Positions 1,801 to 64,000 of a DNA stretch of 64,000 nt are shown one piece after another (position 1 is the stretch's first letter; each line of letters starts with the position of its first letter). The notes beneath the pieces were generated by a model. That model had not been told where the DNA came from, did not search any database, and saw only the letters and a program-made list of their open reading frames with translations. A program made the position numbers and the translations under genes. Source of the DNA: Narcine bancroftii (taxonomy: Eukaryota); the NCBI RefSeq assembly GCF_036971445.1, contig NC_091473.1:79856001-79920000 (forward strand), read 5' to 3'.

Positions 1801-2061
1801 CTCCCTGCAGCCCCCAGAATACCAGTGCTCATTTGGACTGTGACACACACACAACATCAGTGTGGTGGGAGCAGAGTGATGGTGCCGCGTTCTACACTGC
1901 CATAGCAGAAGGAATGGAAGGAGACAGGTACTCGTGCAATGCAACAGAAGCAAACTGTGAGATCATGGGGCTCCCGTGTGGCCAGATGTACAATATAACT
2001 GTGTTAGCAATGGACGAGAACTACACCAGTTTACCAAGTCCAGCTTTTGAAATTGAAACAG
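1801..2061 (+). CDS. FN3 exon A1 ([16 protein letters not shown]...AFEIET)
   Basis: ttttag|CTCCC...ACAG|gtaagt, 261 nt, open frame. Confidence 0.93.
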
Positions 2062-5000
2062 GTAAGTTGAGGTTTTTAATGAAAGCACTAAAGTGCATAA
2101 AATATAAGAATGATGTGAATTATTATATCATTAAACCCTGTGCATCAATAATAATAAATTGTATTTTCTTTATTGATAATTCAAGCAAGTTTTTGATATA
2201 AACTCATCTACTCTAGTGTTAATCCTATCAAGTAAAGATCAAGATTGTAGGCCTCTATTGCATAATTCATTTTTTTTCAGTACTGTGATATAATTTCTTC
2301 TAACTTTCTCCCTTGTACAGTCCCTTGTATCCCACAGAATGTGGTAGCTCACATCAGCTGTGAAAATAACACTGTGTCTGCATTTTGGGATCCCAGTAAT
2401 GGCTCAGAGACATATTTTGTGACAGCACAAGGAACCAATGGCCATTGGGGCTCCTGCAGTTCAACAGGCACTGAATGTGAGATCTCTGACGTTTATTGTG
2501 GCCTGAACTATTATATAACTGTTCAGGCAAACCGTATGGGCTGTAATAGTTCACAAAGCCATGCTTTAATCATTAAAACAGGTAATTTCAGGAAACACAT
2601 ATAACAATAAATTCTGTCCACATTCTGTGAAATTGTCTCTTTTATATCTTACCGTTACATGGTTCAGTAATTGTACTTAGGTTCAATTTTTTATTTGCAG
2701 TACCATGTGTCCCCCAGAATGTTGACGCTCACATCGACTGTGATGATGGACATATGTCAGTCTCCTGGGGGTTCAGTAAAGGAGCAATATCATACATTGC
2801 TACTGCAGAAGGAAGCAACATGCAGCAATGCAGCACCAATGATACACTGTGTGATATCACTGACCTGTACTGTGGAGAGACCTACACTGTCACAGTCCAT
2901 GCGCACGATGACATGTGTGACACAACTAAAAGTCCTTCCATCACAAGGAGAACAGGTAACTGGGGAAATGCAACTTCCCTGAATCACTCATTTCTCTGTC
3001 AATCGTGCTACCTTAATTTTTGCACCAGCCAAAATACTGTTAGTCAGAAAAACTTACAAAGACATTTGTCTGAAGATTTTCATGAAGAACATTAAAAATC
3101 CTGAAAGGATTTGGCCCTTTGAGTCTGATTTGGCATAAGCAGGATCATCACTGATCTATCTCAATGCAATATCTGCATTATCCCCCCTTGATTTCTTTCA
3201 TATTATTGGCTTCTAGCTGAATGAATTCAGTAACTTAGACTCCACCACCTCTGGATGTGGACAATTCCATAGTTTCACCACACTCTGCATGAAGATAGCT
3301 CACTTATCGTAGTCCTAAATGGCCTTCCCTTTGTTCCGAGGCTTGGGTTCTAAATTTCTCAGTTGAAGGAAGCATCCTTTCTGCATCCAAACTGTCAAGC
3401 CTCAATTTTGTAATTTAAATGAAATCTCTTCTCATTTTTCTTAACTAGAGAAAATAGGCTAAGTTCCATCCCAGGAACCAGTCTTATGAACCTTGATTGC
3501 ACTTATTCTGTGACAGTATTTATTTTTTAGGTACATCATATTCAGGGTGTGGCCTCACCAAGCCCCTATTTAATTGCAGAAATTAAATAAACAACTCCTG
3601 AAGTTTACCTGCTGCTCAACAACTGCTCTTTTTCTTCCTTTCCTTTTTCAGTTTCGTGCATCCCACAGAATCTGGATGTGCAGCTGGACTGTGACACAAA
3701 TGATGCTTCAGTGCTGTGGAGCCACACGAGAGGTGCAGTGTCTTACTCTGCAACAGCAGAAGGAAGTGATGGGCACACAGTGTCCTGTGAGACATCCAAG
3801 AGAGAATGTCAGTTAACTGAGCTACACTGTGGACAGATGTATAATTTAACTCTGACAGCACTGGACGGAGTGTGTGACAACTCACAAAGCCCCCTGTTTG
3901 TGTTCAACACTGGTAAGACTGTTATAAAGAATTGCATGATTTAAAATCTGGCCAACCAATCCATTCATTCTATATAGGTACTTGTTTGAAGATTTTGCAC
4001 TGCATGAAAATTGGAGGACTTTTTCCTTAGGTTTAAATCTGATCTTGTTAAGTTACATGCATAGGATTTCTATCTTCAGACTTCAAGACCAAACTCCTGG
4101 AAAGTCCTGCTAGCTGATTTCCAATCTCTATGTGCCTCATCAACAGCTTGTTCACCATTCTATGTGCTGATCCATAAATTTCCTGCACATATATATTAAC
4201 ATGCTTTTCTAGTCCTTTTTTTCCAACGTCAAGTGGCTTTGCACCTTGGTTAGCCAACGCATCACTATCAAGACTGCTCTTTCAAACATTCTGGCGCTGC
4301 CAGAGCTGCTGTAAGGGCTGCACTGACACCTATGTGGAGCCTCAAGAGTGGAGAGTGCAGACTCAGCACTGCTCTGAAGGGTTCAACTGCCGAGTTTATG
4401 CCATCGGCTCTGTACAGACATTAAACTAAAATCCTGCAACCACGGGTCTGTGCCCAAGATGACAGCGCCTATACTCAGCAGTGAACATGAGTGTTGCAAA
4501 CTCCGGGGAGCAGCACACTGGCACAGAGCACCAGAAGCTGGGGAGCACCCTCCATTGACAAGGAGAAGCAGTGGAGTTGACTCTTTTGGACCAATGAGGG
4601 GCTCAGGGAACCAGGTATTGGAGCCAGGGTTCGAGGGGGTGTTGAGAGCTAGAAAATCTCCCAAAAAGCCTCAGGCACTGAAGGCTTCTTGATTGTGTTG
4701 GAGGTTTAGATCTGGAGCTCACGTTGCTGGTTGATCGAACAGGAGTCTTTGCAGCTGCAGAGGTTGTAGAAGCACTGGATGCGAATCCACAGATACACAG
4801 TGACTCTGAAGAGACTCTCTTTTGCTTCTCTTTCTCTCTTACTGTAAGAGGTGCAGGGCGACACCAATGGGGGCACTTTATTTGCCTTACAGCAGGCAGA
4901 AAACAGTTTCATGTAATATTACATGTTCTGTACTATTACATGACAATAAAAGAATTGAATCTTGTAGTCCCTAAAATCCTGCATTTCATCCTTCTATTTG

Positions 5001-8000
5001 CTGAAGCCCACACGGATTCCATTTTTTGCTCTTGTTTTGTGTCTGTTTTTTTAAATATTCTACAATGCAATATTTGAGAGAAGCATTGATGATTTCTGTA
5101 AACTGTATGTACCAGCATTGGCTTAATCTGCAATTGGTTGACCTGAATTCTGATCTTTAAAATGATAAATAAAAGTCTTGGTAATTTGTAAAAGTAATCC
5201 ATTTGATTGATCTGAAATAATTGGATGTCCAATTGTTAAGTGAAACATGTATAACAAAATTTAAGATGGACGAATGTTGGCTTGAATTATACAAACCACC
5301 CCCCCACCCCAATAGGGGGATTCTTTGTTGAAATTTAATTTTTCTACAACTCAGACACATACACTTCTGCTTTTCTTCTCCCTGCCAAATTCTTTTACCA
5401 GTAGTTGTAAAACTTCTTTTTTTTTTCAGCTTTGGGGGTTGGGGGGGGTGGTGCTCTTTTTGTCATCATATGAAACTTCTCGAGGGGAATGCTATTATCA
5501 TGGTCTATGAGTCCACTTATATAACTTTGGAAATATAACCATATACAGCACAGAACAGGCCAGTTTGGCCCTACTAGTCCATGCCAGAACAAATCCCCAC
5601 CCTCCTCGTCCCACTGACCAGCACCTGGTCCATACCCCTCCAATCCTCTCCCCTCCATGTAATTATCCAGTCTTTCCTTAAATGTAAATAATGTCCTTGC
5701 TTCAACCACGTCTGTCGGAAGCTCATTCCACATCCCCACCACCCTTTGCATAAAGAAATTTCCCCTCATGTTCCCCTTATAATTTTCCCCCTGCAATAGG
5801 CCTCTGGTTTGAATATCCCCCACTCTTAATTGAAAAAGCCTATCCACGTTGACTCTCTCTGACCTTTTTAAAATCTTGAACACCTCCATCAAATTCCCCC
5901 TCAATTTTCTACACTCCAGAGAAAAAAGCCCCAGGCTGCTCAACCTTTCTCTGTAACTCAAACCCTGACATCCTGTCAACATTCTCGTGAACCTTCTCTG
6001 CACTCTCTCTATTTTGTTTATATCCTTCCTATAATTCGGTGACCAAAACTGCACACAGTATTCCAAATTTGGCCTCACCAATGCCTTGTACAATTTCAAC
6101 ATAACATCCCAACTCTTGAATTCAATACTCCGATTTATGAAGGCCAACATTCCAAATGCCTTCTTCACCACACCATCTACCTGAGTATCAACTTTGAGGG
6201 TACTATTTACCATAACTCCTAAATCCCTTTGTTGCTCTGCACTCCTCAATTGTCTACCATTCAATGACCATGCACTCCTGTCACATTTTATAATGATGAT
6301 CCTTGATGCACATGAAGACATCATTGCTATTACAATGAGAGTAGGATTAAGAGTGCTCCAGGGCAAAGTGAGTCTTTGTGATTCAGAAGTACTTGTGTTT
6401 TTGGACTGTGTCAGCCCAGAAAAGATTATGACCCCTGATTGCTGATTGGAGTCCCTGAAAATACTATTCAACTTCCTTTTGACTTGTTAACCATCCTTTC
6501 TCTTTATGATCTCACCAGGCATTCACCCTGACTCAACAGCTTTTCTCCCAACCAACAGTTGGTGGCCCCTCCACCAATGATTGCCAATACTTTACTGTTA
6601 CCTCAATGTTACCTCAACTTCACAGAAGGATCAGTATAGAGAAAGAACCAAAGACTTGTTGATCCAAACCAAGGCTTTTATTAACTAAAAGACTGGAGCA
6701 TATCACATGTAGGTCAACCAGTCCAGATGACCTGGTCTGGCTAGGAGCAATCCTTTAAGACCTGCCAGTAGGCGTGGCTATGCTCTCAGCCAATCACAGT
6801 CATCCTACACTACCATCTGAACATATACACATTGGTGATCGAATCTGTACTATCACAATCAGTTCATTCTCACCCATGTGGTATTATTCCCATTGGACCC
6901 AGTCCTGGCTTTGAACATCCCTGTTTACCTTTGTGCTCACTGCAAAGGTAGAGATCACAGGAGGACAAGTTCAAAGTGGGAGCACTTAACACTTTGGGTA
7001 ATTGTAGCTGCCAAATTCTTAAGTATGATGTGCAACCAATGGAGTCATAGTTAGAATAACATATTTCTTTGGGTACTGGTGCATCTTTAGGCCAATGAAT
7101 ACCATTACACGTTGGAACTTTGAATTTCTATAACAGGTTGATATGATTAACTGGCGCAGAGAACAAAAAATGTTCAGAAGTCACTGTTGTAAATATTTCA
7201 AACAGTGCACCACAGTACATGTCATAATAATGAAGTGTAAATTTGCATGAATGATTAATTTTAAATGCATTCTTCAATGACACTGGTGATATTTTTTCAC
7301 ATTAGAAAACTATTTACTTTCAAAAGGGGACTTTCCTGCTTTAAAAACAGCAGGGATTTTCTTTCTTGACAATTCTTTGGAATCAAATATATGGTATTGA
7401 AATTAAATCAAAGACTTCCAACTGTGTGGATTTGTGCTCAAGATACTCTTTCATAGGTCATAATCAGTTTGTGTTTTGCAGCTCCTTGTGCACCCAAGTA
7501 TGTTTCCACCCATCTGAACTGTGACACAAAGAGTGTGTCAGTGAGCTGGGAGTATAGTGATGGTGCAATGCAGTACCTTGTAAATGCAGAAGGACAAGAT
7601 GGACACACATCACTATGTCGCACAACATGGACAAAGTGTGATTCAATGGACCTGCACTGCAGTCAAACGTATTCATTAACTGTGACAGCAATGGATGGTT
7701 CCTGTCAAAGTATAAGTACCGTTATTGAAACTGAAACAGGTACGATTTCTAAAGATTTTTTGGATTTGTGGGAAATGCAGCAATTGTAAATACTTCTCTG
7801 AGATCTAAAGTTGCGCCAAGAGTTGTTCTTTGAATATAGGAAAAGTAGCTGATCACAAGACAATTAATATAGCCATTGTACAGAATTGTCTTATTGCTCC
7901 TCAGGTACAACATGAGTGGCATTTTGTAATCATTCCCTGTGAAGAGCCTCATTTGCTAGTAGCTGAAATTTAGCTTTAGATGTCCATTTACTAAGTTCGT

Positions 8001-11000
8001 TACACTGAAAATGTATCTTTGAAATTTCATTAAAAACCGTTCCTGAGATGGTGTATTCACAGATCAGAAGGTGGTCCTAATCCCAAATACTGCTTCTTTA
8101 TTGACTTCCTCTCTTCATAACATAGGAAGTGAGGATGTTGCCTGATGAATTACACAGTGTTCATTTCCATTCTCTCAGCAAGTGAAGCTGCTGTACCTAT
8201 AGCAAACAAGATCTAGATACAGGAAATTCACAATGGGCTGAAAAATGCCTTTTTTCGAAAAGGCTAATTTTTTAAATTTTAATTTCAAACTATTTATTTG
8301 GCATTCAATTCATTTTTGAGGAAAAAAGCAATGCTAGAATTCTTTTGAATTATGAGGTTAAATGGCCAGTAAGACAGGGAGCTTACGTAAAGGAGATGGG
8401 ATCCAATGCATCCAGCAGGATCAAAACAATTTTACAAGGGCATTTCTTGTTCATTTTCTTAAGGGCCTAATCATAATTTACCATTCACGATGAATTGAAT
8501 GTCTCTAAATGGTGATCTAGTTACAGCAATACCATTGGAGATCTCTTCATAACGAGTATATTTTCTGAATTCATTAATCAAAAAAACCATTCCCTCTGCT
8601 TCCAACTCTGCAGATGCCTGATCTGTTGAGTATTTCTAACATTTTATGTTTCAGATTTCTTTTTTTCAAATTCATTCAATAATTTTGGAATTCAACAGAG
8701 AGAATGGACTCAAGGGGCTGAATGACTCATTTCTCTCCCAATTTTATATTTGTCCTGTTGAAATGCAGCACTGATACCAATAATTTGTTACATTTATCTT
8801 TCCTCACCTCCAAAAGCCCCGTGTCCCCCTCAGAACGTACAAGCTGACTGTGATGCTGTCATTGCGTTTGTAACATGGGAGCCGAGTAATCTCACAGTGT
8901 GGTACACTGCAACAGCTGAGGGGAGTGATGGGCACACAGCCACCTGCACCACATCTGAAACAAGCTGTCTAATCCCAGATCTTCACTGCAGCCAAGTATA
9001 CAGCATCTCAGTGCTCGCGTTTGGTGAAACCTGCAGCAGCCTCCAAAGCTCCAGCTATGAAATTCAGACAGGTAATGTGGAAGGAGAGAAGTTTTGTATA
9101 ACACCATTCATCTCCTCAGGATATCTTGAGATCAGTTGATGTGCTGCCAGTTTACATTCATAGACCATGGCAGTAAGCCCTTGAAAGGAACATAAGCTGA
9201 ACAAGGTTGATATGGCTTTTGCGTTGGAAGGTGAATTATGCTCAGTGCAACATCCTGTTCCTCTCCAGAAAAGAGTTCTTGGAATATTTGAACAGAACAG
9301 ACATGGCCCTGAATAAAAGTCTCTTTGGAAATACAGATCTGATCAAGGATCTCACACTCTCAGTACAACGTTAACCCATCAACTGGAGTCATGAAGCAGG
9401 CAGCTAGTGCTTGGAAAATGGTGGGAATCAACTGAGTGTATCTCTTAGTGAGGTTTCTGACCTTTGTAGGGCTACACAAGGCTATAACTAGATTTCTGAA
9501 GTGGCACCATCAAACTGTTAATTGGGGTCTGATAATGCACTTCTGGCTGCCGATACTGGAGTGAATGGGTAAAATGGGGGCCATGCTCACTCTGGCAAAC
9601 ATCAAGTCACTGTCCAATTAAACTGGACTGCAAAGGGGAGTTATCCATTATATTTGTAGAGATTGTCAGAGTAGAACTACTGTTTATCATACCGAAGGGT
9701 GGTGAATATATGAATCAAGCTATGTGAGGAAGCTCTAGAGGTGGGTACAATATGACATTTAGAAGACCTTTGGAAGGGTACATGGATAGGGAATGTTTGG
9801 AGGGATATGAGGTAGGAAGGATTTAGTATTTTGTTTTTGGTAGGAATATATAGGTTAGCATATCATCAAAGACCGACAGGCCTGTACTGTGCTGTAATGT
9901 TCTATATTCTTTGTTCTATGCAGCAGTATCATGGAACTCATCCAATTAACCATTATTTTGAAGTGCAAAATATCTAAAGATGAGCCAAACAAATCTGAGA
10001 TATAGAACATCTGTCAAAGAGAAAAGGAGCTAGAAACATCTATCCTGCCAGCATAAATGAATGTGTGCCCACTTCTGCCCCAAAGCCACCATCTTGTAGG
10101 GTTTTGTGATGGCCCTGTTATTAGTGGAAGCACAGCAGGCCTACAATCTACTGATTTAATCTTTAAGCAATCCAGAACATAGCGACTTCACTAAACACAA
10201 TAGATATCTACAATAACCTGAGGATTTGGAGATTAGTATTATATCCATATCTGAAGTCATTAAAGTAAAGAGCCAGAGAGAATCGTGGGAGAATTAGCAC
10301 TTAAACTGGCAGAAAGCCATGGTAAACCAGTCATTACTGGGACTTTTGGAGCTGTAAAGCAGACAACTGGATTGACAGGAAAAAGGGATGATTTTGTAAT
10401 CCTTTTCATTCAGTAGATTTTAATGTTTATTTTTCCTTTTTAAAGCATCATGTGCCCCTGATGAAATCATTTCCAATGTGGATTGTAACTCCAATAGAGT
10501 GGTAGTTTCATGGGCAAGGTCTAATGCAACGATCTCGTATGATATAACTGCAGAAGGAACTGATGGACATACACACTCACACAACACAACAGAGACACGC
10601 TATGAAATGCTGGATTTACACTGTGGACAGTCCTATAACATAACCGTTACAACACTGAGTTATGGTCGGCGCAGTATTTCAAGTACTTCCATCCAAATCC
10701 AAACTGGTAATTAATCTTCTAATTTTACCTTAATTGTTCATATTTATGGATAATTATGTAATAAATGGCATTCACTTGTATTTTATACATAGCACCATGC
10801 ATTCCTGAGAATCTAACAGCTGAGCTGAATTGTGATTTGAATACAATATCCTTCTGGTGGGATGAGACTGATGGAGCAAAGTTATACACTGTGACCATTC
10901 GAGACAGGCAAAGAGTCACGGCTTTATTCAACACAAGTGATGCAAGCGCTCAAATCCAAAACCTACAGTGTGGTGAATATTACACAATCTCTGTTCTAGC

Positions 11001-44000: not shown

Positions 44001-44544
44001 ATTTTGGATACTTAGGATTTGAAATGGGTCACAACCATAATGAGCCAGACTCTTGATCTAAAATTTCTTGGATGCAAAGATCTGCAATGAATGGACAAAT
44101 GTGGAATATTTGTGACTGAAGGTATTTGATTTCAGTGAGATGCCCAAAATCCACCTGCGATTCAATATTCTGTGAATGCAGACAGAACCTTAGCAGTCAA
44201 TAATTTCTTGACTTATATGTCTATATTTCATTTTCTACAGCACCATGTGCCCCAGATGAAATCATTGCCAATGTGGATTGTAACTCCAATCGAGTGGTAG
44301 TATATTGGGGCCGGTCTAATGGAGCCAGGGAATTCAATGTAATCGCAGAAGGAAGTGATGGACATACACACTCTCACAACACAACAGAGACACGCTATGA
44401 AATGCTGGATTTACACTGTGGACAGTCCTATAACATAACCGTTACAACACTGAGTTATGGTCGGCACAGTATTTCAAGTACTTCCATCCAAATCCAAACT
44501 GGTAAATTATATCCCACCAGAAAATAATGTTGATGCTTAGTAAA

Positions 44545-44578
<34 letters not shown>

Positions 44579-56500: not shown

Positions 56501-59500
56501 GTCCCAGCAACATCTTTGTCAATGTTCTCTGCCCTCTTTCGATCTTATTCAAATCTTTCCTGTAGGTTGATGACCAAAATTCTTGCAAGAACTTGTTAAA
56601 TAGATTTAATAATAGAACATGAAATTCACTATGCAGAATTAAATTCACAATTGTTTAAGGATTCTTTTTTTGCTTTCTCCCTTGTACAGTCCCTTGTATC
56701 CCACAGAATGTGGTAGCTCACATCAACTGTGAAAATAACACTGTGTCAGTGTTTTGGGATCCCAGTAATGGCTCAGAGTCATACCAAGTAACTGCACAAG
56801 GAACCAATGGCCATTGGGCCTCCTGCCAAACAACAGGCAGTGAATGTGAGGTCTCCGACGTGTATTGTGGACTGAACTATTATATAACTGTACAGTCAAT
56901 CTGCGTGGAGTGTAACAGCTCACAAAGCTCTGCTTTGACAGTTAAAACAGGTAATTCATGTGAATTATATAGAACCATGTCTAAAATTAACGTATTATAT
57001 GGATGTTGCTTCTCATGTATTATTCAGTCTATATTTATGAATTTTCTTCTTGCAGTACCATGTGTCCCCCAGAATGTTGACGCTCACATCGACTGTGATG
57101 ATGGACATATGTCAGTCTCCTGGGGGTTCAGTAAAGGAGCAATATCATACATTGCTACTGCAGAAGGAAGCAACATGCAGCAATGCAGCACCAATGATAC
57201 ACTGTGTGATATCACTGACCTGTATTGTGGAGAGACCTACACTGTCACAGTCCATGCACACGATGAGACATGTGATACTGTTGAAAGCCCTTCCATCACA
57301 AGGAGAACAGGTAACTGCAGAGATGTGCAATTTCCCTGAATCACAAATTTCTCTGTCAATCACACTCATCATTTCTGCACCAGATTGCTCTGTAGAAATA
57401 TCCTGAAATACATTTTCTCAGTATGATTTTGTAAATGATAACCTGTAGGTTAAACTAACAGTCTTTTATTAAACAAATCTGCTTGCTTATTAACAGGCTA
57501 CAGCTTCAAGGCAATTCAAAATTTAAAATGCAATGTCTGAGTCAAAGGCAGTTGGTCAATTGTATAATTCCATAGTGGGTGTACACCCAACAATATAGAA
57601 ACACATACTGAACATTTGATTAAAGATTTGGGTTATTTAAATAACTGCTCTTCATCCACTGTTTTCTTTTCAGTTTCGTGCATCCCACAGAATCTGGATG
57701 TGCAGCTGGACTGTGACACAAACGATGCTTCAGTGCTGTGGAGCCACACGAGAGGTGCAGTGTCTTACTCTGCAACAGCAGAAGGAAGTGATGGGCACAC
57801 AGTGTCCTGTGAGACATCCAAGAAAGAATGTCAGATAACTGAGCTACACTGTGGACAGATGTATAATTTAACTCTGACAGCACTGGACGGAGTGTGTGAC
57901 AACTCACAAAGCCCCCTGTTTGTGTTCAACACTGGTAGGACCTTTGTTTGACTTTGTTGCTTTAAAAACTAACTGTAAAATTTTCCATGACTTTTACACT
58001 TGCAATGCACCTGTTACCTATCGAAATACCACATCACATTGAGATAGAAAACTGTTAGAGGTAACCGCAAACAAATCCATGCTATACTGTGCAATATATG
58101 GTGGGTAGTCATGTATGAACATTATTGAAGAAAATTGGCAGCTACTTTTCATGTTCCATGCAATATAAGTGCAGAGGAAGGCTGTAGATGGAGCTCTCGA
58201 GAGTGCAATAATTGAATGACTTACTAAATTGTAAATACTGTAAAACTTCACTGATCCACTACTTGATTGTTGTGAAATTCTCATGGTTTGGCATCTGCCA
58301 CACCAGGTGATGTTTGCCATGCTTCCCTTTAGCTCAAATGTGCCTAATTCCTACACTTCCCTTTAGTTCCTGCCATCCCTTCTAATTCACTTGAACCCAA
58401 TTTCATAGCTCCTTTTTAATCTATTGGCAGCAGGTATCGTTCTAGTTCCTCACTCACCTGTTCTCAGTTCTCCAGCTCTCTTTAATCGCATTGGGTCATG
58501 TTTGCCATTCTCCCTTCAAACTCACCAGGATCCTTGCTTCTGCACTCATTTTAAACTGATTTCCCCATCCTTGCTTTCAATATAAACTTACAGAATTGGT
58601 TGTGCTGGTGTCTTCTTCTTTCTTTGGCTTGGCTTCGCGGACGAAGATTTATGGAGGGGTAATGTCCACGTCAGCTGCAGGCTCGTTTGTGGCTGACAAG
58701 TCCGATGTGGGACAGGCAGACACGGTTGCAGCGGTTGCAAGGGAAAATTGGTTGGTTGGGGTTGGGTGTTGGGTTTTTCCTCCTTTGTCTTTTGTCAGTG
58801 AGGTGGGCTCTGCGGTCTTCTTCAAAGGAGGTTGCTGCCCGCCGAACTGTGAGGCGCCAAGATGCACGGTTGGAGGCAATATCAGCCCACTGGCGATGGT
58901 CAGTGTGGCAGGCACCAAGAGCTTTCTTTAGGCAGTCCTTGTACCTCTTCTTTGGTGCACCTCTGTCTCGGTGGCCAGTGGAGAGCTCGCCATATAACAC
59001 GATCTTGGGAAGGAGATGGTCCTCCATTCTGGAGACGTGACCTACCCAGCGCAGTTTGATCTTCAGCAGTGTGGATTCAATGCTGTCGGCCTCTGCCATC
59101 TTGAGTATTTCGATGTTGGAGATGAAGTCGCTCCAATGAATGTTGAGGATGGAGTGGAGACAACGCTGGTGGAAGCGTTCTAGAAGCCGTAGGTGATGCC
59201 GGTAAAGGACCCATGATTCGGAGCCGAACAGGAGTGTGGGTATGACAACGGCTCTGTATACGCTAATCTTTGTGAGGTTTTTCAGTTGATTGTTTTTCCA
59301 GATTCTTTTGTGTAGTCTTCCAAAGGCGCTATTTGCCTTGGCGAGTCTGTTGTCTATCTCGTTGTCGATCCTTGCATCCGATGAAATGGTGCAGCCGAGA
59401 TAGGTAAACTGGTTGATCGATTTGAGTTTTGTGGGCCCGATGGAGATGTGGGGGGGCTGGTGTAATTATAGAATAAAACCCATGATCCAGAAAATCTATG

Positions 59501-62500
59501 TTAGTTTGACACAAAGTCCTGGATGTACCAGACAATTAGACATATGAAATTCCACCCAACTCTTAATATATTAGATTATTTTTAGAGTCTTTTAGTGACT
59601 CTAAACAAAGCCCTGGAACTCATGGACAGCAAAGACGCATACATCAGGATGCTCTTTATCGATTACAGATCAACATTCAACACTATCATCCCCTCAAAAC
59701 TGATCAGCAAACTCCAAGACCTGGGCCTCAATACCTGTGTAATTGGATCCTGGATTTCCTCACCTCAGGACAACAATCAGAGAGGATTGGCAAGAACTTC
59801 CTCTCCACAATCTCCATCAGTACCAGAATACCACAGGGCTGCATTCGTAGCCCCCTGCTCTACTCACTAAATGCCTATGACTGTGTGACTCGGCACATCA
59901 ATAACATCAGCTACATGGTAGTGTGTTGTATAAAAGGGGTTGATGAGTCAGGATACAGGAGGGAAATTTAAAATTTTGCTGTCTGGTGTACTAACAACCA
60001 CCTCGCACTCAATGTCACCAAAACCAAGAAGCTGATTGTGGACTTCAGGAGGGGAAAACTAGAGGTGTATGATCAGTGATCATTGGACAATCAGAGGAGG
60101 AGAGAGTGAGAAGATTTAAATGTCTGGGAATCACCATTTCTGAGGACCTTTCCTGGACACAACACATGAAGGTCATCGTGAAGAAAGCACATCAGCATCT
60201 CTCCTTCCTCAGTAGTTTGCAGAGGTATGACATCAAAGACCTTGGCAAACTTCGACAGATGTGCAGTAGAAAGTGTGCTTAACAGCTGCATAAAGACCTG
60301 GCATGGGGACACCAATACCTCTGGGTGGAAAACCCTGAAAAAGGTAATGACACAGCCCAGCACATCACAGGCAAAGCACTCCCCACCATCAAGAAAATCT
60401 ACATGGAACGCTGCTGTCAGAGAGCAGCAGCAATCTTCAAGGATCCTCATCACACAGGACAATGCAGCTGTTCTCACTGCTGCCATCAGAAAAGAGGTAT
60501 AGTTGTCACAAGTCTTGTATCATCAGGTTCAGGAACAGTTGCTACCCTCCACCATCAGACTCATTAACAACAAACTCAATCAGTGACTCATTTAAGGACT
60601 CTTACTTTGCAAATTATTTAATATTGACTATTTATTTTTAGTAATCCAGAGTTTGCTCTTCCTTCTTGTTTATATTTCTCTTTCTTTAAGTATTTTTTTC
60701 TTGATTACAGTTCTTTTGGCACTACAGAGAAATAAAAATTCTGTCTGGCCCGCAGGAAAAAGAATCTCAGGGTTGTATGCGATGTCATGTATGTACTCTG
60801 ACAATAAATCAGAACTTTGAACTTAATTTGAATTTTTCACTGGAACTAATTTATCATCATTCAGGTCCCTTGCCATTCAGTGTGGGGAATCATGTATCTC
60901 CATCCGTTACGATCTATGGCCCTCCAAATTGTAGTTGTTGCCTCCCCTGTTCTCCTTTGGTGAAGGCTCCATCTTTGAGCTGAGACCGTAGTCGATGTTG
61001 AGTCCACGATTATACAAGGAAAAAATACTGAAGTGGTTTCCCATTGCTTTCTTCAACTGCAGTGTTCATACTGTATGGGTATCCCTGACCATTGATCAGC
61101 AGATTCATCTGCCCAGTGTTTTTAGTTTTACAACCATAAATTCCAATTTGTAGAATCTACCTTTAAAAACCATCCACCATCTGTAATCCATGGCTTCACA
61201 TGGCCCTGATTGGGAGGTTAAACAGGTTCTACACCTTGCCTAAGGGTGATGTGTAGACTATTGGATAGACGGGGTGCCCTACACCTCCTTTTGCTGAGCA
61301 ATAGCGCAGCACCGACACTGGTGGAACCATTTGCATTGAATAAAACTTTATTTTCAAAGGTTCCAAAGAGAGATTTTCCTCAGTAATTATTTTTACAGCT
61401 GGTTAATTATTTTAAAGAGAGTTATTTGTTAATAATCAGTATAAAAATAAAATAGGTAATCTTATAAAGACAAAAATGATTATGCTGACATCATATATAT
61501 AGAAATATTTGGATTGTAGACATTTCTGCTTTCCCGCATTTTGCTTGTGTTTCTCTACTTTGCAGCCCCTTGTACCCCTGAACACATTTCCACCCATCTG
61601 AATTGTGACACCAGGAGTAGGTCAGTGACCTGGGAGAAAGCTGATGGTGCCGTGTGGTACATTGTAACGGCAGAAGGACAAGATGGACACATTTCACTGT
61701 GTAATACAACAGGAACAAACTGTGATTTTATGGACCTCCACTGCAGTCAAGTATATTTAATATCTGTGATAGCGATGGACAATTACTGTCAGAGTGTAAA
61801 CATCTCAATTTTTGAATCTGAAACAGGTAAACTTCCTCGAGTAAGTTATGTGAGAAATCATTAATTCATTGCTGTAACTGAAAGGCAGTTCTAAGGATTG
61901 CAATCTAGTCCGGTCACATTGTTTGTTTGGGAATTTATGGAGACTCTTATATCTCTCTCTGTGCTGATATAATTTAGCGATACATTGAAATGTTGGGTAT
62001 GTCTTTCTGCATGGCTTCCAACATTAATCCTTTGTTGTAGTGACTTTATGCCTCTCTGTGTGAAATAGAAGAGATTGTTTTCCTTCTTCTATTTTCAAGT
62101 AAGTGACCCAGACCCCAGCAACAAAAGGCCTGATCTGAAAATTCAGACCCAGCTGAACTGAATGCCTCGAAGGACAATTTACATCTTGACTGTGTATCTC
62201 CATGGAAACAATTTTGTTATCAAAGGAAACAATTGAAACTTTACACTACTATCATTAACTAAATACTCTTTTGTCCCTCTTCCTCCCCAAAAGCCCCTTG
62301 TCCCCCACAGAACGTACAAGCTGATTGTGCCGCTGTCACTGCCTTTGTAACATGGGAGCCGAGTAGTCTCACAGTGTGGTACACTGCAACAGCTGAGGGG
62401 AGTGATGGGCACACAGCCACCTGCACCACATCTGAAACAAGCTGCCTCATCCCACATCTTTACTGTAGCCAAATATACAGCATTTCGGTGCTCGCGTTTG

Positions 62501-63672
62501 GAGAAACCTGCAGCAGCCTCCAAAGCTCCAGCTATGAAATTCAGACAGGTAATGCAGAAAGAGGGAATCTCTTAATACAGCACTACTTCAAAATGTTTCA
62601 GATGCAACAGCCATCACTAATCTGCTGTTACCAATTATTAGGAGAACAAGTTCAGGTTAACATGCTCCATATTAATCACCTGAGTTGGACATTATTCCAA
62701 CCTTCTTATTTTAAAGAACCTTTCTATTAAATTTATGTTGGGTGGAATAAGAATCCTTTTCTCATGCCTGGCAACATTAATGCAAGGATTAAAAATTCAG
62801 GATAAACATTTTGGATACTTAGAATTTGAAATGGATCACAACCATAATGAGCCAGACTCTTGATCTGAAATTTCTTGGATACAAAGATCTGCAATGAATG
62901 GACAAATGTGGAATATTTGTGACTGAAGGTATTTGATTTCAGTGAGATGCCCAAAGTCCACCTGTGATTCAATATTCTGTGAATGCAGACAGAACCTTAG
63001 CAGTCAATAATTTCTTGACTTATATGTCTATATTTCATTTTCTACAGCACCATGTGCCCCAGATGAAATCATTGCCAATGTGGATTGTAACTCCAATCGA
63101 GTGGTAGTATATTGGGGCCGGTCTAATGGAGCCAGGGAATTCAATGTAATCGCGGAAGGAAGTGATGGACATACACACTCTCACAACACAACAGAGACAC
63201 GCTATGAAATGCTGGATTTACACTGTGGACAGTCCTATAACATAACCGTTACAACACTGAGTTATGGTCGGCACAGTATTTCAAGTACTTCCATCCAAAT
63301 CCAAACTGGTAAATCATGTCCCACCAGAAAATAATGTTGATGTTTAGTAAATATATGTATATATTTACAAGACGGCAAGAGAATTGATATTCACTTGTAT
63401 TTTGTACATAGCACCATGCATTCCTGAGAATCTAACAGCTGAGCTGATTTGTGATTTGAATACAATATCCTTCTGGTGGGATGAGACTGATGGAGCACAG
63501 TTATACACTGTGACCATTCGAGACAGTCAAAGAGTCACGGCTTTATTCAACACAAGTGATGCAAGCGCTCAAATCCAAAACCTACAGTGTGGTGAATATT
63601 ACACAATCTCTGTTCTAGCAACAGATGACATCTGCAGGAGACCCCAAAGTGCAGTGGTGAATGTACATGCAG
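1801..63672 (+). CDS. FNDC7: Internal portion of a giant multi-exon FNDC7-like (Cys-rich fibronectin type III repeat) gene; 34 intact one-domain exons in a 9-exon super-repeat; both ends lie outside the window
   Basis: Recurrent exons (A/V)PCxPxN...CD...V.W....GA..Y...AEG.DG...C......C....L.CG..Y...V.A....C.S..S......T, the FNDC7-type FN3 pattern. All are bounded by polypyrimidine-AG and G|GTA, are multiples of 3 long, and have phase-1 introns. Strict orthology to FNDC7 is not established (FNDC7-like). Confidence 0.85.
2321..2581 (+). CDS. FN3 exon B1 ([17 protein letters not shown]...LIIKT)
   Basis: gtacag|TCCCT...ACAG|gtaatt, 261 nt. Confidence 0.93.
2701..2955 (+). CDS. FN3 exon C1 ([17 protein letters not shown]...ITRRT)
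   Basis: ttgcag|TACCA...ACAG|gtaact, 255 nt. Confidence 0.93.
3100..3575 (-). mobile_element. Old degenerate CR1-like LINE 3' fragment
   Basis: Degenerate versions of CR1 3'-end motifs (attccatagtttcaccacactctg; gtggcctcaccaagccc) also seen in younger copies here; ends approximate. Confidence 0.5.
3652..3912 (+). CDS. FN3 exon D1 ([17 protein letters not shown]...FVFNT)
   Basis: tttcag|TTTCG...ACTG|gtaaga, 261 nt. Confidence 0.93.
4265..4965 (+). repeat. Unclassified interspersed repeat, copy 2
   Basis: Collinear similarity to 1000-1630; ends approximate. Confidence 0.6.
5531..6280 (-). mobile_element. CR1 LINE, 5'-truncated (ORF2 C-terminus plus 3' tail)
   Basis: ORF 5395..6471 contains RDLGV...[19 protein letters not shown]...[10 protein letters not shown]...[14 protein letters not shown], typical of CR1 ORF2. 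Confidence 0.9.
6635..6857 (-). mobile_element. Solo LTR (223 bp)
   Basis: 5-bp TSD ATCAG (6630-6634 and 6858-6862), ...TCACA terminus, minus-strand AATAAA (ttttatt near 6677). Confidence 0.7.
7482..7739 (+). CDS. FN3 exon E1 ([17 protein letters not shown]...IETET), divergent copy
   Basis: ttgcag|CTCCT...ACAG|gtacga, 258 nt. Confidence 0.92.
8817..9071 (+). CDS. FN3 exon F1 ([15 protein letters not shown]...YEIQT)
   Basis: caaaag|CCCCG...ACAG|gtaatg, 255 nt. Confidence 0.9.
9680..9920 (+). mobile_element. CR1 3'-end fragment
   Basis: agggtggtgaatatatgaa...ggcctgtactgtgctgtaatgttctat tail; ends approximate. Confidence 0.6.
10446..10706 (+). CDS. FN3 exon G1 ([17 protein letters not shown]...IQIQT)
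   Basis: ttaaag|CATCA...ACTG|gtaatt, 261 nt. Confidence 0.9.
10793..11053 (+). CDS. FN3 exon H1 ([17 protein letters not shown]...VNVHA)
   Basis: acatag|CACCA...GCAG|gtatca, 261 nt. Confidence 0.92.
11472..11732 (+). CDS. FN3 exon I1 ([17 protein letters not shown]...VEIQT)
   Basis: tttcag|TTGCT...ACAG|gtaact, 261 nt. Confidence 0.92.
11990..12190. mobile_element. Tc1/mariner (Tigger/pogo-like) MITE
   Basis: ta|cactaaacccc ... ggggttttactg|ta: imperfect TIRs with TA duplication. Confidence 0.65.
12239..12499 (+). CDS. FN3 exon A2
   Basis: ctccag|CACCC...ACAG|gtaaaa, 261 nt. Confidence 0.92.
13616..14287 (-). mobile_element. Solo LTR interrupted by an RTE insertion
   Basis: TGTTAG...ACCACA termini, promoter-like GC box and tttataa on the minus strand; RTE sits inside. 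Confidence 0.45.
13672..14062 (-). mobile_element. RTE-clade LINE 3' fragment
   Basis: [33 protein letters not shown]...[14 protein letters not shown]; (GAA)-type tail. Confidence 0.88.
14316..15271 (+). mobile_element. Internally deleted Chapaev3-type (CMC superfamily) DNA transposon relic
   Basis: TIRs CACTGGACAA / TTGACCAGTG; residual peptides [16 protein letters not shown] and [16 protein letters not shown] near 14710-14835; a LINE tail is inserted at about 14980-15225. Confidence 0.65.
15400..15660 (+). CDS. FN3 exon B2
   Basis: ccacag|TCCCT...ACAG|gtaatt, 261 nt. Confidence 0.92.
15786..16040 (+). CDS. FN3 exon C2
   Basis: ttgcag|TACCA...ACAG|gtaact, 255 nt. Confidence 0.92.
16198..16458 (+). 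CDS. FN3 exon D2
   Basis: tttcag|TTTCG...ACTG|gtaggt, 261 nt. Confidence 0.92.
17049..17309 (+). CDS. FN3 exon E2 ([17 protein letters not shown]...LETET)
   Basis: ttgcag|CCCCT...ACAG|gtaaaa, 261 nt. Confidence 0.92.
17783..18037 (+). CDS. FN3 exon F2
   Basis: caaaag|CCCCT...ACAG|gtaaag, 255 nt. Confidence 0.9.
21034..21390 (+). mobile_element. CR1 3'-end fragment, same young family as 5531-6280
   Basis: [32 protein letters not shown]...[14 protein letters not shown]; near-identical tail. Confidence 0.9.
21522..21782 (+). CDS. FN3 exon G2
   Basis: ttatag|CACCA...ACTG|gtaatg, 261 nt. Confidence 0.9.
21886..22286 (+). pseudogene. Decayed pseudo-exon H2
   Basis: Recognisable H-exon sequence (gtgggatgactctgatggaacaaaattttacactgtg; gctcaaatccaaaacccgcagtgtagtgaa). 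Acceptor is tat instead of tag, donor is gcatcac instead of gtatcac, there are internal deletions and a stop, and a 153-nt insertion with a 15-bp TSD. Confidence 0.85.
22080..22232 (+). mobile_element. Penelope pseudo-LTR-derived short insertion inside pseudo-exon H2
   Basis: 15-bp TSD AAAACAGATAACATC (22065-22079 and 22233-22247); resembles the Penelope tails at 24100-24240 and 26000-26110. Confidence 0.75.
22375..24240 (+). mobile_element. Penelope-like element (Neptune-type), decayed RT plus GIY-YIG endonuclease, with inverted 5' pLTR
   Basis: GVAMGT-like RT motif near 22840; IPLVLTYHP; Cys linker CDCRKCHTC; [22 protein letters not shown] (GIY-YIG). 22420-22485 is the reverse complement of 24125-24190. 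Flanks cagcaaatgttc / cagtaaatgttc are TSD-like. Confidence 0.85.
24925..26110 (+). mobile_element. Second Penelope-like element fragment (3' part)
   Basis: [15 protein letters not shown]...IPLILTYHP; [17 protein letters not shown]; pLTR tail. Confidence 0.8.
26395..26655 (+). CDS. FN3 exon I2
   Basis: tttcag|TCCCT...ACAG|gtaaca, 261 nt. Confidence 0.92.
26678..30460 (-). mobile_element. Near full-length decayed CR1 LINE (ORF1 esterase-like, ORF2 EN/RT)
   Basis: [49 protein letters not shown] (27511..27960); ALVIGD and [12 protein letters not shown]-like ORF1 motifs (29834-30233); many frameshifts. Confidence 0.9.
30918..31477 (-). mobile_element. RTE-clade LINE 3' fragment
   Basis: Near-identical to 13672-14062 and 58612-59455; TSD-like GCCAAAAT on both sides. 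Confidence 0.88.
32326..32500 (+). repeat. 5' LTR of the Gypsy element
   Basis: Direct repeat of 36890-37064; followed by the PBS. Confidence 0.96.
32609..36711 (+). pseudogene. gag-pol of the Gypsy element, split over three frames
   Basis: Two CCHC knuckles ([10 protein letters not shown]; [10 protein letters not shown]); protease DSG; RT ([22 protein letters not shown]); RNase H ([18 protein letters not shown]); integrase (AHEGH, VAVDF, SDNGPQF, NGEVEK). Frameshifts near 34935 and 35300. Confidence 0.93.
36890..37064 (+). repeat. 3' LTR of the Gypsy element
   Basis: Preceded by the PPT, followed by TSD CTTTC. Confidence 0.96.
37241..37501 (+). CDS. FN3 exon A3
   Basis: cttcag|CCCCC...ACAG|gtatga, 261 nt. 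Confidence 0.92.
37773..38033 (+). CDS. FN3 exon B3
   Basis: ctgcag|ACCCT...GCAG|gtaatt, 261 nt. Confidence 0.92.
38164..38418 (+). CDS. FN3 exon C3
   Basis: ttgcag|TTCCT...ACAG|gtaact, 255 nt. Confidence 0.92.
38472..39510 (+). mobile_element. About 1-kb solo LTR-like element in the C3-D3 intron
   Basis: Starts TGTGACAGAA; absent from the otherwise similar C2-D2 intron; a related copy lies inverted at 50325-51410. Confidence 0.7.
39627..39887 (+). CDS. FN3 exon D3
   Basis: tttcag|TTTCG...ACTG|gtaggt, 261 nt. Confidence 0.92.
39982..40350 (+). mobile_element. Solo LTR
   Basis: TGTAG...GTACA termini, CCAAT boxes, TATAAAA (about 40222), AATAAA (about 40245), CpG-rich. Confidence 0.65.
41550..42332. 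repeat. GC-rich non-autonomous element (possibly Harbinger-like) with internal minisatellites
   Basis: About 27-bp units like gcagtcccccactggccactccagccc (41840-42055) and about 19-bp units like ggctgtcaggcagtgaggg (42058-42155); weak inverted termini agctgc / gcggct. Confidence 0.45.
42797..43057 (+). CDS. FN3 exon E3
   Basis: ttgcag|CCCCT...ACAG|gtaaaa, 261 nt. Confidence 0.92.
43487..43741 (+). CDS. FN3 exon F3
   Basis: caaaag|CCCCT...ACAG|gtaatg, 255 nt. Confidence 0.9.
44241..44501 (+). CDS. FN3 exon G3
   Basis: ctacag|CACCA...ACTG|gtaaat, 261 nt. Confidence 0.92.
44543..44578. repeat. (TA)n microsatellite in the G3-H3 intron
   Basis: Expanded relative to the short tract in the paralogous G4-H4 intron. 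Confidence 0.9.
44623..44883 (+). CDS. FN3 exon H3
   Basis: acatag|CACCA...GCAG|gtaaaa, 261 nt. Confidence 0.92.
45070..45312 (+). mobile_element. tRNA-derived SINE (V-SINE-like)
   Basis: B-box GGTTCGAACCC; V-domain-like ttctccctgtttctgcttgagttttctatgggtactctggtttcttcccac; A-rich tail. Confidence 0.7.
45692..48658 (-). mobile_element. ORF1-only L1-clade element (HAL1-like), full length with TSD
   Basis: 14-bp TSD AAAAAGACATGCTT (45678-45691 and 48659-48672); 5' end GGGGGGGCGTGGCAAGATGGC; L1 ORF1p motifs [43 protein letters not shown]; AATAAA and short poly(A); no ORF2. Confidence 0.85.
47039..48521 (-). pseudogene. L1-type ORF1 (coiled coil plus RRM/CTD) with one in-frame TGA at 47315-47317 and a probable 5' frameshift
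   Basis: ORFs 47315..48397 and 47039..47290 are in the same frame across ...[18 protein letters not shown]. Confidence 0.8.
49165..49930 (-). mobile_element. CR1 3' fragment
   Basis: [22 protein letters not shown]; [31 protein letters not shown]. Confidence 0.85.
50325..51410 (-). mobile_element. About 1.1-kb solo LTR-like element, same family as 38472-39510
   Basis: TGTTATGAGCCC...GGTCACA termini; reverse-complement similarity at both ends; internal 23-bp tandem repeat (ttcagttccaacaagcttcctgc) near 50915-50980. Confidence 0.7.
52614..52874 (+). CDS. FN3 exon I3
   Basis: tttcag|TTCCT...ACAG|gtaact, 261 nt. Confidence 0.92.
53335..55025 (+). mobile_element. Decayed CR1 ORF2 fragment with 3' tail
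   Basis: [29 protein letters not shown]; [17 protein letters not shown]; same family as 26678-30460, opposite orientation. Confidence 0.88.
55426..55686 (+). CDS. FN3 exon A4
   Basis: tctcag|CTCCC...ACAG|gtatga, 261 nt. Confidence 0.92.
56242..56590 (-). mobile_element. CR1 3' fragment with internal deletions
   Basis: agaaccacagaacac tail; [18 protein letters not shown]. Confidence 0.65.
56690..56950 (+). CDS. FN3 exon B4
   Basis: gtacag|TCCCT...ACAG|gtaatt, 261 nt. Confidence 0.92.
57056..57310 (+). CDS. FN3 exon C4
   Basis: ttgcag|TACCA...ACAG|gtaact, 255 nt. Confidence 0.92.
57674..57934 (+). CDS. FN3 exon D4
   Basis: tttcag|TTTCG...ACTG|gtagga, 261 nt. Confidence 0.92.
58612..59455 (-). 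mobile_element. RTE-clade LINE 3' fragment
   Basis: [24 protein letters not shown]...[21 protein letters not shown]; TSD GCTGGTGT (58604-58611 and 59456-59463). Confidence 0.9.
59596..60830 (+). mobile_element. Rex1/Babar-type LINE fragment
   Basis: [31 protein letters not shown]; [23 protein letters not shown]; tail gacaataaatc shared with 14980-15225 and (inverted) 24500-24600. Confidence 0.8.
61566..61826 (+). CDS. FN3 exon E4
   Basis: ttgcag|CCCCT...ACAG|gtaaac, 261 nt. Confidence 0.92.
62294..62548 (+). CDS. FN3 exon F4
   Basis: caaaag|CCCCT...ACAG|gtaatg, 255 nt. Confidence 0.9.
63048..63308 (+). CDS. FN3 exon G4
   Basis: ctacag|CACCA...ACTG|gtaaat, 261 nt. Confidence 0.92.
63412..63672 (+). 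CDS. FN3 exon H4
   Basis: acatag|CACCA...GCAG|gtattg, 261 nt. Confidence 0.92.
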
Positions 63673-64000
63673 GTATTGCTCACTTTGTAAAGCTTTATGC
63701 GATATGTTAGCAAGTGAAGTCTTGAAATCCAGTGACAGTACATTAATGTAGCTTTCCTCAGACTTATTCACTCCGTTAATGTTAAACTTTTAAAAAATAT
63801 TAGATACTGCAACTTTGGAACATAGCCTCCAGATTTGGTGGGGTGGGGGGGGGGTGTGGTGTGGATATGAGGAGGAACTGCTTCTTTCAGGGAGTAGTGA
63901 ATCTGTGGAATTCTCTGCCCAAGAAGGCAACACAGAGGCACATGTAGACCTTTGAATAGGAAAGGAATTATGGGTGATGGAGAATGAGTGGGTAAGTGGA

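Follow-up and report, generated by a model that had tools for sequence, protein, structure and literature searches.

The window, that is, the whole 64-kb stretch of Narcine bancroftii DNA analyzed here, carries on its plus strand, between positions 1801 and 63672, an array of 34 complete fibronectin type III (FN3)-like exons and one fragment near 21.9 kb. The exons were located with an HMM seeded with the window's own domains, and splice ends, phase and class were then checked for each of them. Each of the 34 is bounded by an AG acceptor and a GT donor, is in phase 1 at both ends and measures 255, 258 or 261 nt; together they add up to 8,823 nt, or 2,941 codons, without a stop. Upon sequence comparison the domains separate cleanly into classes A to I, with identities of 64–100% within a class (mean 88%, 48 pairs) versus 21–51% between classes (mean 39%, 513 pairs), and the class order reads ABCDEFGHI-ABCDEFG(H dead)I-ABCDEFGHI-ABCDEFGH. 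The HMM, splice and phase checks thus reproduce the initial annotation, which had described 34 intact single-domain FN3 exons in this order, a sum of about 2,940 codons and a nine-domain period. Pfam fn3 (PF00041) matches all nine exons of the first unit (E-values from 4e-8 to 0.034, four of the nine above the curated cut-off) and the NCBI model P0002 with 172 bits; the Atlas predicted structure of the NCBI model P0003 has a mean pLDDT of 0.77 and FN3 proteins as its nearest rows. Rfam returned no match across the window, and the RGD motif is absent.

Exons are named below by class and unit, and cysteines by alignment column (C2, C13, C45, C52, C59 and C74). The first unit consists of A1 (1801..2061), which has five cysteines, lacks C74 and is identical to the last domain of the NCBI model P0177, followed by B1 (2321..2581), C1 (2701..2955), D1 (3652..3912), E1 (7482..7739), the most divergent E with 64–66% identity to the others, F1 (8817..9071), G1 (10446..10706) with three cysteines, H1 (10793..11053) with four, and I1 (11472..11732). 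The second unit is composed of A2 (12239..12499), B2 (15400..15660), the C2 exon (15786..16040), within which P0002 begins, D2 (16198..16458), E2 (17049..17309), F2 (17783..18037), G2 (21522..21782), the pseudo-exon H2 (21886..22079) and I2 (26395..26655). The third unit opens, after a 10,585-nt intron with an LTR element, with A3 (37241..37501) and continues with B3 (37773..38033), C3 (38164..38418), D3 (39627..39887), which is 99–100% identical to NCBI Narcine bancroftii models, E3 (42797..43057), F3 (43487..43741), G3 (44241..44501), H3 (44623..44883) and I3 (52614..52874). The fourth comprises A4 (55426..55686), the opening domain of P0003, B4 (56690..56950) with one extra, seventh cysteine, C4 (57056..57310), D4 (57674..57934), E4 (61566..61826), F4 (62294..62548), G4 (63048..63308) and H4 (63412..63672), beyond which P0003 runs on to more A, B and C domains past the window. 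H2 has decayed: its acceptor AG has become AT, it carries frameshifts and an in-frame stop, and it aligns to H1 and H3 with 68% identity and 33 gap positions in five openings.

Two other readings of the array were ruled out. The copies differ and most introns are unalignable, the longest common block being E3–H3 versus E4–H4 (2,149 nt, 94%), which excludes an assembly duplication; and exons of the same class lie 8–9 exons apart, not side by side as in a mutually exclusive array of the Dscam type.

The introns also carry other elements. In intron I2–A3 an LTR retroelement lies at 32326–37064 on the plus strand, in the gene's sense, with 175-nt LTRs 97.1% identical, TG...CA ends and a 5-nt target-site duplication; it gives zinc knuckle, RT, RNase H and integrase matches, its pol frame is broken at about 34.9–35.2 kb, and from the domain order we take it to be of the Ty3/gypsy type. 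Two open stretches on the minus strand of the 7.7-kb intron H3–I3 (47042–48424) have no Pfam match at 1e-5 and are presumably akin to LINE-1 ORF1. LINE-like fragments with 70–94% identity among the long introns are found at 5398–6486, 13675–14064, 21034–21390, 26681–29116, 30920–31482, 53336–55016 and 58611–59465, and GC-rich minisatellites of 28 nt and 22 nt occupy 41832–42155 in intron D3–E3.

One gene or several

In the NCBI annotation the locus is divided among four partial 'FNDC7-like' models, P0177, P0002, P0003 and P0013. P0177 has an I domain and then the window's A1 at its end; P0002 extends from inside the C2 exon to D3, joining G2 to I2 across the dead H2 and I2 to A3; P0003 runs from A4 to H4 and on to further A, B and C domains; and P0013, which lies outside the window and is tied to it by the shared D–H classes and not by coordinates, reads D-E-F-G followed by a divergent H, then four unique domains and finally the two terminal ones. 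These models appear to tile the array consecutively, from the non-periodic part (P0177) to the C-terminus of the family (P0013).

The NCBI view, that several shorter FNDC7-like genes stand in tandem, or a variant in which the array is partly untranscribed, would account for the four models, for the long introns filled with transposable elements that flank the I exons (4.6, 10.6 and 7.7 kb) and for the one dead exon. We nevertheless hold it to be very improbable: the Narcine models start at an internal Met and stop a few residues past an exon, they break at differing classes, and neither a signal-peptide exon nor a head or tail exon occurs between units. Indeed, tblastn with nine N- and C-terminal homologue pieces detected neither a head nor a terminal exon in any of the introns (eight non-exon hits, all below 26 bits), consistent with the initial annotation, which had seen none in view. 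Moreover, 34 of the 35 exon copies are intact, with a dN/dS of 0.38.

The array is therefore best treated as part of a single transcript, which we regard as very likely, its joins being predicted by the gene models; the single chain is supported by the symmetric phase-1 exons, by the lack of stops and by the lack of any head or tail exon between units. The catshark Scyliorhinus canicula carries five units in one model of 4,001 aa and 46 domains (P0017), and predicted I-to-A joins are also present in models of Hypanus, Heterodontus, Heptranchias, Rhinoraja, Mobula and Narcine. The start of the chain lies beyond the reach of the Narcine models, in none of which a signal peptide was found, and catshark P0107 stands in for it on the strength of domain orthology only: P0107 has a signal-like stretch, three Cys-poor basic FN3 domains (pI 10.3) and 19 non-periodic six-Cys domains, P0177 domains share 53–66% identity with its domains 4, 6, 7 and 14, and a Heptranchias model, P0158, connects domains 16, 17 and 19 of P0107 to G, H, one unique domain and then I, A and B. 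The class order given in the initial annotation stands, but its unit boundaries do not: the array starts with an I shortly before the window and a divergent H ends it, so the natural unit is I-A...H and not A–I. The whole protein would thus begin with a signal peptide and three Cys-poor basic FN3 domains, continue through a non-periodic run of six-Cys FN3 domains into some five I-A-B-C-D-E-F-G-H units, and finish with a few unique domains followed by the two terminal FN3 domains; it would have no membrane anchor. If the models are consecutive, the chain would have at least about 53 domains, perhaps about 70. In many homologues (P0019, P0047, P0011 and others) the last domain is followed by a basic R-R-x-R-like stretch, which we take to resemble a furin site.

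Family placement

A search for long relatives gave 166 matches, 120 of them listed, of 1,800–4,100 aa (length limit 4,240). Those listed come from sharks, sturgeons, bichirs, teleosts, frogs and a caecilian, with no amniote name among the 120, and a representative search adds members of up to 5,143 aa. True FNDC7/fndc7a proteins, in contrast, have 708–831 aa and 8–9 domains, with 24–27% identity to the end of the Narcine array and at best 32–38% per domain. All nine named FNDC7 proteins show the pattern C2/C45/C52/C59 without C13 and C74, whereas the window domains have C13 and, except for G and A1, C74. In a tree of the head region (19 named proteins, catshark P0107 as stand-in; unrooted, long branches flagged), FNDC7 and the giants are split at 100/100, with fishes on both sides. 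Because of this split and of the absence of C13 and C74 from FNDC7 domains, the array is, as far as tree and cysteine pattern tell, a paralogue of the fndc7b/fndc7rs giant group and not an FNDC7 orthologue. The label of a giant FNDC7-like protein is thus right as to the family, but an enlarged orthologue of mammalian FNDC7 is contradicted by both tree and cysteines.

The window shares with the fndc7b/fndc7rs group the six-Cys FN3 repeat (C2, C13, C45, C52, C59, C74), and Narcine P0013, outside the window, ends as members of that group do, with two three-Cys terminal domains and no TM segment. Teleost fndc7b and fndc7rs1–4 and the giants of sturgeons, bichirs, frogs and caecilians have these six columns and terminal domains in common; they measure 1,800–5,100 aa, show 32–41% identity in non-elasmobranchs, and differ in being mostly non-periodic or in having other periods and classes. 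Judged from these homologues, giant size is the normal state of the fndc7b/fndc7rs paralogue in fishes and amphibians. FNDC7/fndc7a resembles the giants in its FN3-only, secreted-type layout, its Cys-poor head, the retention of C2, C45, C52 and C59, and family expression in support cells of hair-cell organs, and differs in its 8–9 domains without C13 and C74. Tandem FN3 domains of fibronectin and tenascin (PDB 1fnf and others) are the nearest solved structures by sequence (best E-value 6e-9) and have no cysteine at the six positions in the alignment seen; no solved chain of the FNDC7 family is present among the 12 structure matches. The literature searched, which leaves out most subscription journals, contains no account of giant FNDC7-like proteins, of the period or of a disulfide scheme.

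Probable cysteine pairing between domains

Cysteine makes up 6.3% of the window chain, and the six columns hold it in 88–97% of 4,092 domains. Within a domain, C45 and C52 covary (phi 0.92). Between domains, C13 covaries with C74 of the next domain (phi 0.68 in 3,579 adjacent pairs from 136 proteins, 0.87 in the 3,035 internal non-elasmobranch pairs), the controls giving 0.06 in the same domain, 0.02 in the reverse direction and 0.08 at lag 2. Because the sequences are related to one another, p-values come out inflated; once the pairs were clustered to 307 junction groups, the C13/C74(n+1) counts were 283/6/3/15 (p 4e-18). Mean-field DCA (3,810 pairs, Neff 842) ranks C45–C52 2nd, C13–C74(n+1) 3rd and C59–C2(n+1) 5th of 14,028. 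A held-out set of 67 proteins gave 756/33/3/50 for C13/C74(n+1), and 782/7/3/50 with a BC-loop cysteine as substitute C74; control pairings are also significant there, because cysteine losses come in runs, with odds ratios of 37 in the same domain and 9 in reverse versus 382–1,862.

In the FN3 topology the C-terminal pole carries C13 and C59 and the N-terminal pole carries C2 and C74, positions with which the alignment to 1fnf agrees. The members of each pair thus share one pole of the fold if the six cysteines pair within their own domain (C2–C74, C13–C59, C45–C52), which would make the chain an ordinary flexible beads-on-a-string FN3 protein. Such pairing is scarcely credible, as C13 is lost without its own C59 in 111/111 cases and C74 without its own C2 in 222/222, C13–C59 and C2–C74 rank 160th and 1,103rd in the same DCA, and unpaired cysteines would be left in both terminal domains. 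Indeed, the penultimate domain of homologues lacks C13 and C74 and has the BC-loop cysteine, the last one has only C2, C45 and C52, and the first Cys-rich domain is without C2; the two three-Cys terminal domains, and stretches in which C13/C74 are lost, can be paired in full only with a cross-domain scheme. True FNDC7, in which C13 and C74 are missing together, also fits such a scheme, as do the losses in classes F and G described below.

The location of C13/C59 and C2/C74 at opposite poles makes bonds across a junction feasible, and the covariation argues with high confidence for a disulfide staple from C13 to C74 of the next domain. A second staple, from C59 to C2 of the next domain, is likely, its support being thin because both cysteines are nearly invariant (the two were lost together once in 3,579 pairs and never in the held-out set). 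Each domain would then have one internal disulfide (C45–C52) and two bridges to the next, so that the chain as a whole is probably a rod with double staples. Together with zero-length linkers, the staples would yield a stiff, acidic, N-glycosylated rod of about 30 nm per unit.

Both staples are predicted at 29 of the 33 junctions of the window and one at the four F–G junctions. G lacks C74 in 25/25 elasmobranch copies, so the F–G junction would have a single staple and be a softer joint; F lacks C13 in 9/24, and since Narcine F keeps C13 opposite a G without C74, one spare thiol per unit is expected. In G exons (e.g. 44241–44501) C45–C52 is replaced by a His-rich strand (five His in G3; H-x-H-x-H) that is largely kept across elasmobranchs and could be a metal or pH-sensitive site. 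Further unpaired cysteines occur in single copies, A1 (1801–2061, without C74) and B4 (56690–56950, the seventh cysteine).

Homogenization of the exon copies

The nearest neighbor of a domain copy comes from the same species in 126 of 159 testable cases; many of the misses are between two congeneric catsharks, and class I is an exception (7/13). In the window, exons of the same class are 80–95% identical in 10-nt bins, and identity falls to 27–40% over roughly the first 10–30 nt of intron (control 28–33%), as seen in 44 pairs, the four co-aligned E–H pairs from units 3 and 4 being excluded. D1 and D3 show no synonymous difference, B1 and B3 show 13/66, and synonymous divergence is heterogeneous among exons in all six unit pairs (p 1.5e-5 to 0.027), which rules out a recent duplication of whole units as the sole history. 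The dN/dS of 0.38 is pooled over 48 same-class pairs; classes A and H are near 1, with few differences. Taken together, these data suggest that gene conversion limited to exons, along with purifying selection, keeps the copies alike.

Several parts of the array deviate from this behavior. The I exons of Narcine (at 11472, 26395 and 52614), which sit among the longest introns, escape homogenization, being 69–74% identical with a dS of 0.34–0.46. The E–H blocks of units 3 and 4 (42777–44886 and 61545–63675) align over 2,149 nt at 94%, introns included, unlike other unit pairs, and may reflect a recent longer conversion or duplication. The last H of Narcine (P0013) clusters with that of Rhinoraja (P0007) (95/90), apart from the internal H copies, so the edge of the array is not converted.

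The nine-domain period

Classes A–I recur in order in 12 other elasmobranchs, both sharks and rays; in Scyliorhinus canicula P0017 the identity at lag 9 is 84% versus a median of 38%. The initial annotation had proposed other chondrichthyans and teleost fndc7-like arrays as places where the period might recur; it is shared across elasmobranchs, and the A–I period is absent from the teleost arrays. Nor was it found in bony fishes or amphibians among the homologues compared, the cassette being restricted to elasmobranchs among the matches listed. Among the 120 long homologues listed of 166, 107 have no strong period and 13 have one, namely two catsharks with the A–I cassette and 11 others with periods from 3 to 10 and other classes, some of which may be assembly artefacts; Acipenser sinensis shows a period of 9, though with domains that correspond to none of the A–I classes. 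Super-repeats have thus arisen repeatedly in the family with varied periods and are therefore not required. The period would go back to duplication of a nine-exon cassette before the shark–ray split, its copies being kept alike since by exon-by-exon gene conversion and purifying selection.

These comparisons bear on the ruler/filament analogy with titin drawn in the initial annotation, of which the position-specific classes in fixed order hold; as a whole the analogy is weak, the period varying both along the chain and across vertebrates. The A-band super-repeats of titin (7- and 11-domain) likewise have position-specific classes and arose by tandem duplication of an exon cassette (PMC10665226). 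Titin, however, is intracellular, mixes Ig and FN3 domains, has a partner with a fixed 43-nm period and a ruler role supported by mouse deletions, whereas the Narcine array is FN3-only and disulfide-rich, its copies are 64–100% identical and its period is not kept outside elasmobranchs. Were the array a molecular ruler, its nine-domain period (about 30 nm) would match a periodic partner and set a spacing; the class order and class-specific cysteine patterns kept in the 12 other elasmobranchs, the approximately five units that catshark and Narcine both seem to have, and a stapled rod would all suit this. We nevertheless find a ruler improbable. The 107 non-periodic homologues, and periods of 3, 4, 5, 6, 7, 8, 9 or 10 in the rest, argue against it, the period is broken in Narcine itself, where unit 2 lacks a live H, models skip I (Narcine, Rhinoraja) or D–E (catshark), and gene conversion accounts for the likeness of the copies without a partner. 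The array thus appears to resemble the titin A-band only in its position-specific classes and to work as a modular extracellular rod.

Secretion and possible tissue role

That the chain is extracellular, Cys-rich and rich in sequons, as the initial annotation proposed, is borne out in several ways. The window chain has 59 N-x-S/T sequons versus 34.2 ± 5.0 in 1,000 shuffles, none of which reached that number, and NTS, NAT, NIT, NNT, NGS, NSS, NDT, NLT and NTT are all present; the repeats are acidic (pI 4.3). A hydrophobic N-terminal stretch is seen in 24 and a TM-like 19-mer in one of the 120 long homologues listed, and homologues with a full N-terminus have a signal-peptide-like start and no TM stretch, in keeping with the claim of a very long, periodic extracellular chain. 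An FN3 domain is about 3.5 nm long, at which a unit would span about 30 nm and the whole chain about 190–250 nm. From these features we infer a secreted, unanchored, stiff and acidic glycoprotein rod with a basic head.

Clues to its site of action come from relatives. Zebrafish fndc7rs4, itself a six-Cys family member, and fndc7a are expressed in neuromast support cells by in situ hybridization, and fndc7b and fndc7rs2 are detected (PMC6363392); fndc7a marks neuromast-like cells in the fin (PMC11789645); and mouse Fndc7 is 138-fold enriched in cochlear supporting cells (PMC5137903). An FNDC7-named paddlefish transcript is 33-fold lateral-line-enriched (PMC5429088) and five FNDC7-named sturgeon contigs belong to the set common to ampullary organs and neuromasts (PMC7720607), matches that may represent the short FNDC7 paralogue. 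Support cells secrete the neuromast cupula, the make-up of which is poorly understood, with muc5AC as a matrix gene tested by mutants (PMC11765562); tectb and zpld1a were not detected in neuromasts (PMC9851615). PMC8615036, PMC9750624 and PMC4484386 add nothing on function, and the literature searched holds no report of FNDC7 protein located in cupula or jelly. Fish Mucin-5AC of the cupula is likewise secreted, has repeated Cys-rich domains in variable number, is expressed by support cells and occurs in cartilaginous and bony fishes (PMC11765562), but these are CysD and not FN3 domains, and its cupula role, unlike the one proposed for the Narcine gene, is supported by mutants.

The rod would act as a structural fiber of the acellular gel made by lateral-line support cells, such as the cupula or the ampullary jelly, and from the expression of relatives there is about an even chance that it is a scaffold of a lateral-line or ampullary gel. 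The same stapled rod might instead serve another secreted matrix, such as skin or gill mucus, an olfactory or gut surface coat, or an egg case: the tissue evidence concerns distant relatives throughout and in part the short paralogue, zebrafish has several paralogues that may differ in tissue, and the paddlefish enrichment, of operculum versus fin, is not organ-specific (PMC5429088). This option is possible but fairly unlikely, given that four independent data sets point to support cells of hair-cell organs, that fndc7rs4, a six-Cys protein, is found in neuromasts by in situ hybridization, and that the 120 long homologues listed of 166 include no amniote. A role specific to the electric organ was rejected as unsupported, since the array is also present in non-electric sharks and rays.

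Discussion

Our best overall reading, to which we give a probability of roughly 0.55, is that the window holds the repeat core of a giant secreted, stapled fndc7b/fndc7rs glycoprotein that would be a fiber of lateral-line or ampullary gels. More speculatively, and unlikely as it stands, such proteins may form an undescribed class of giant extracellular fibers with double-locked FN3 junctions, in which sharks and rays would alternate eight stiff junctions with a single-stapled F–G hinge or cross-link node at intervals of about 30 nm, which would determine the mesh of a gel; the spare thiol and the His-rich G strand would act there as cross-link or hinge, in the gel of the cupula or the ampulla of Lorenzini.

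The probable inter-domain cysteine pairing and the exon-limited homogenization go beyond the initial annotation. The locus illustrates cleanly how the copies of an old multi-exon cassette can stay uniform one exon at a time as their introns diverge, and probably also how automatic annotation can break up a single gene. Joining neighboring FN3 domains by double disulfide staples would, if true, be a new way to stiffen such chains, and the scheme predicts the bonding of FNDC7 itself, with one staple. As a conserved family of putative secreted rods of 2,000 to more than 5,000 residues, with members expressed in support cells, these proteins are a direct candidate for the poorly understood make-up of the cupula.
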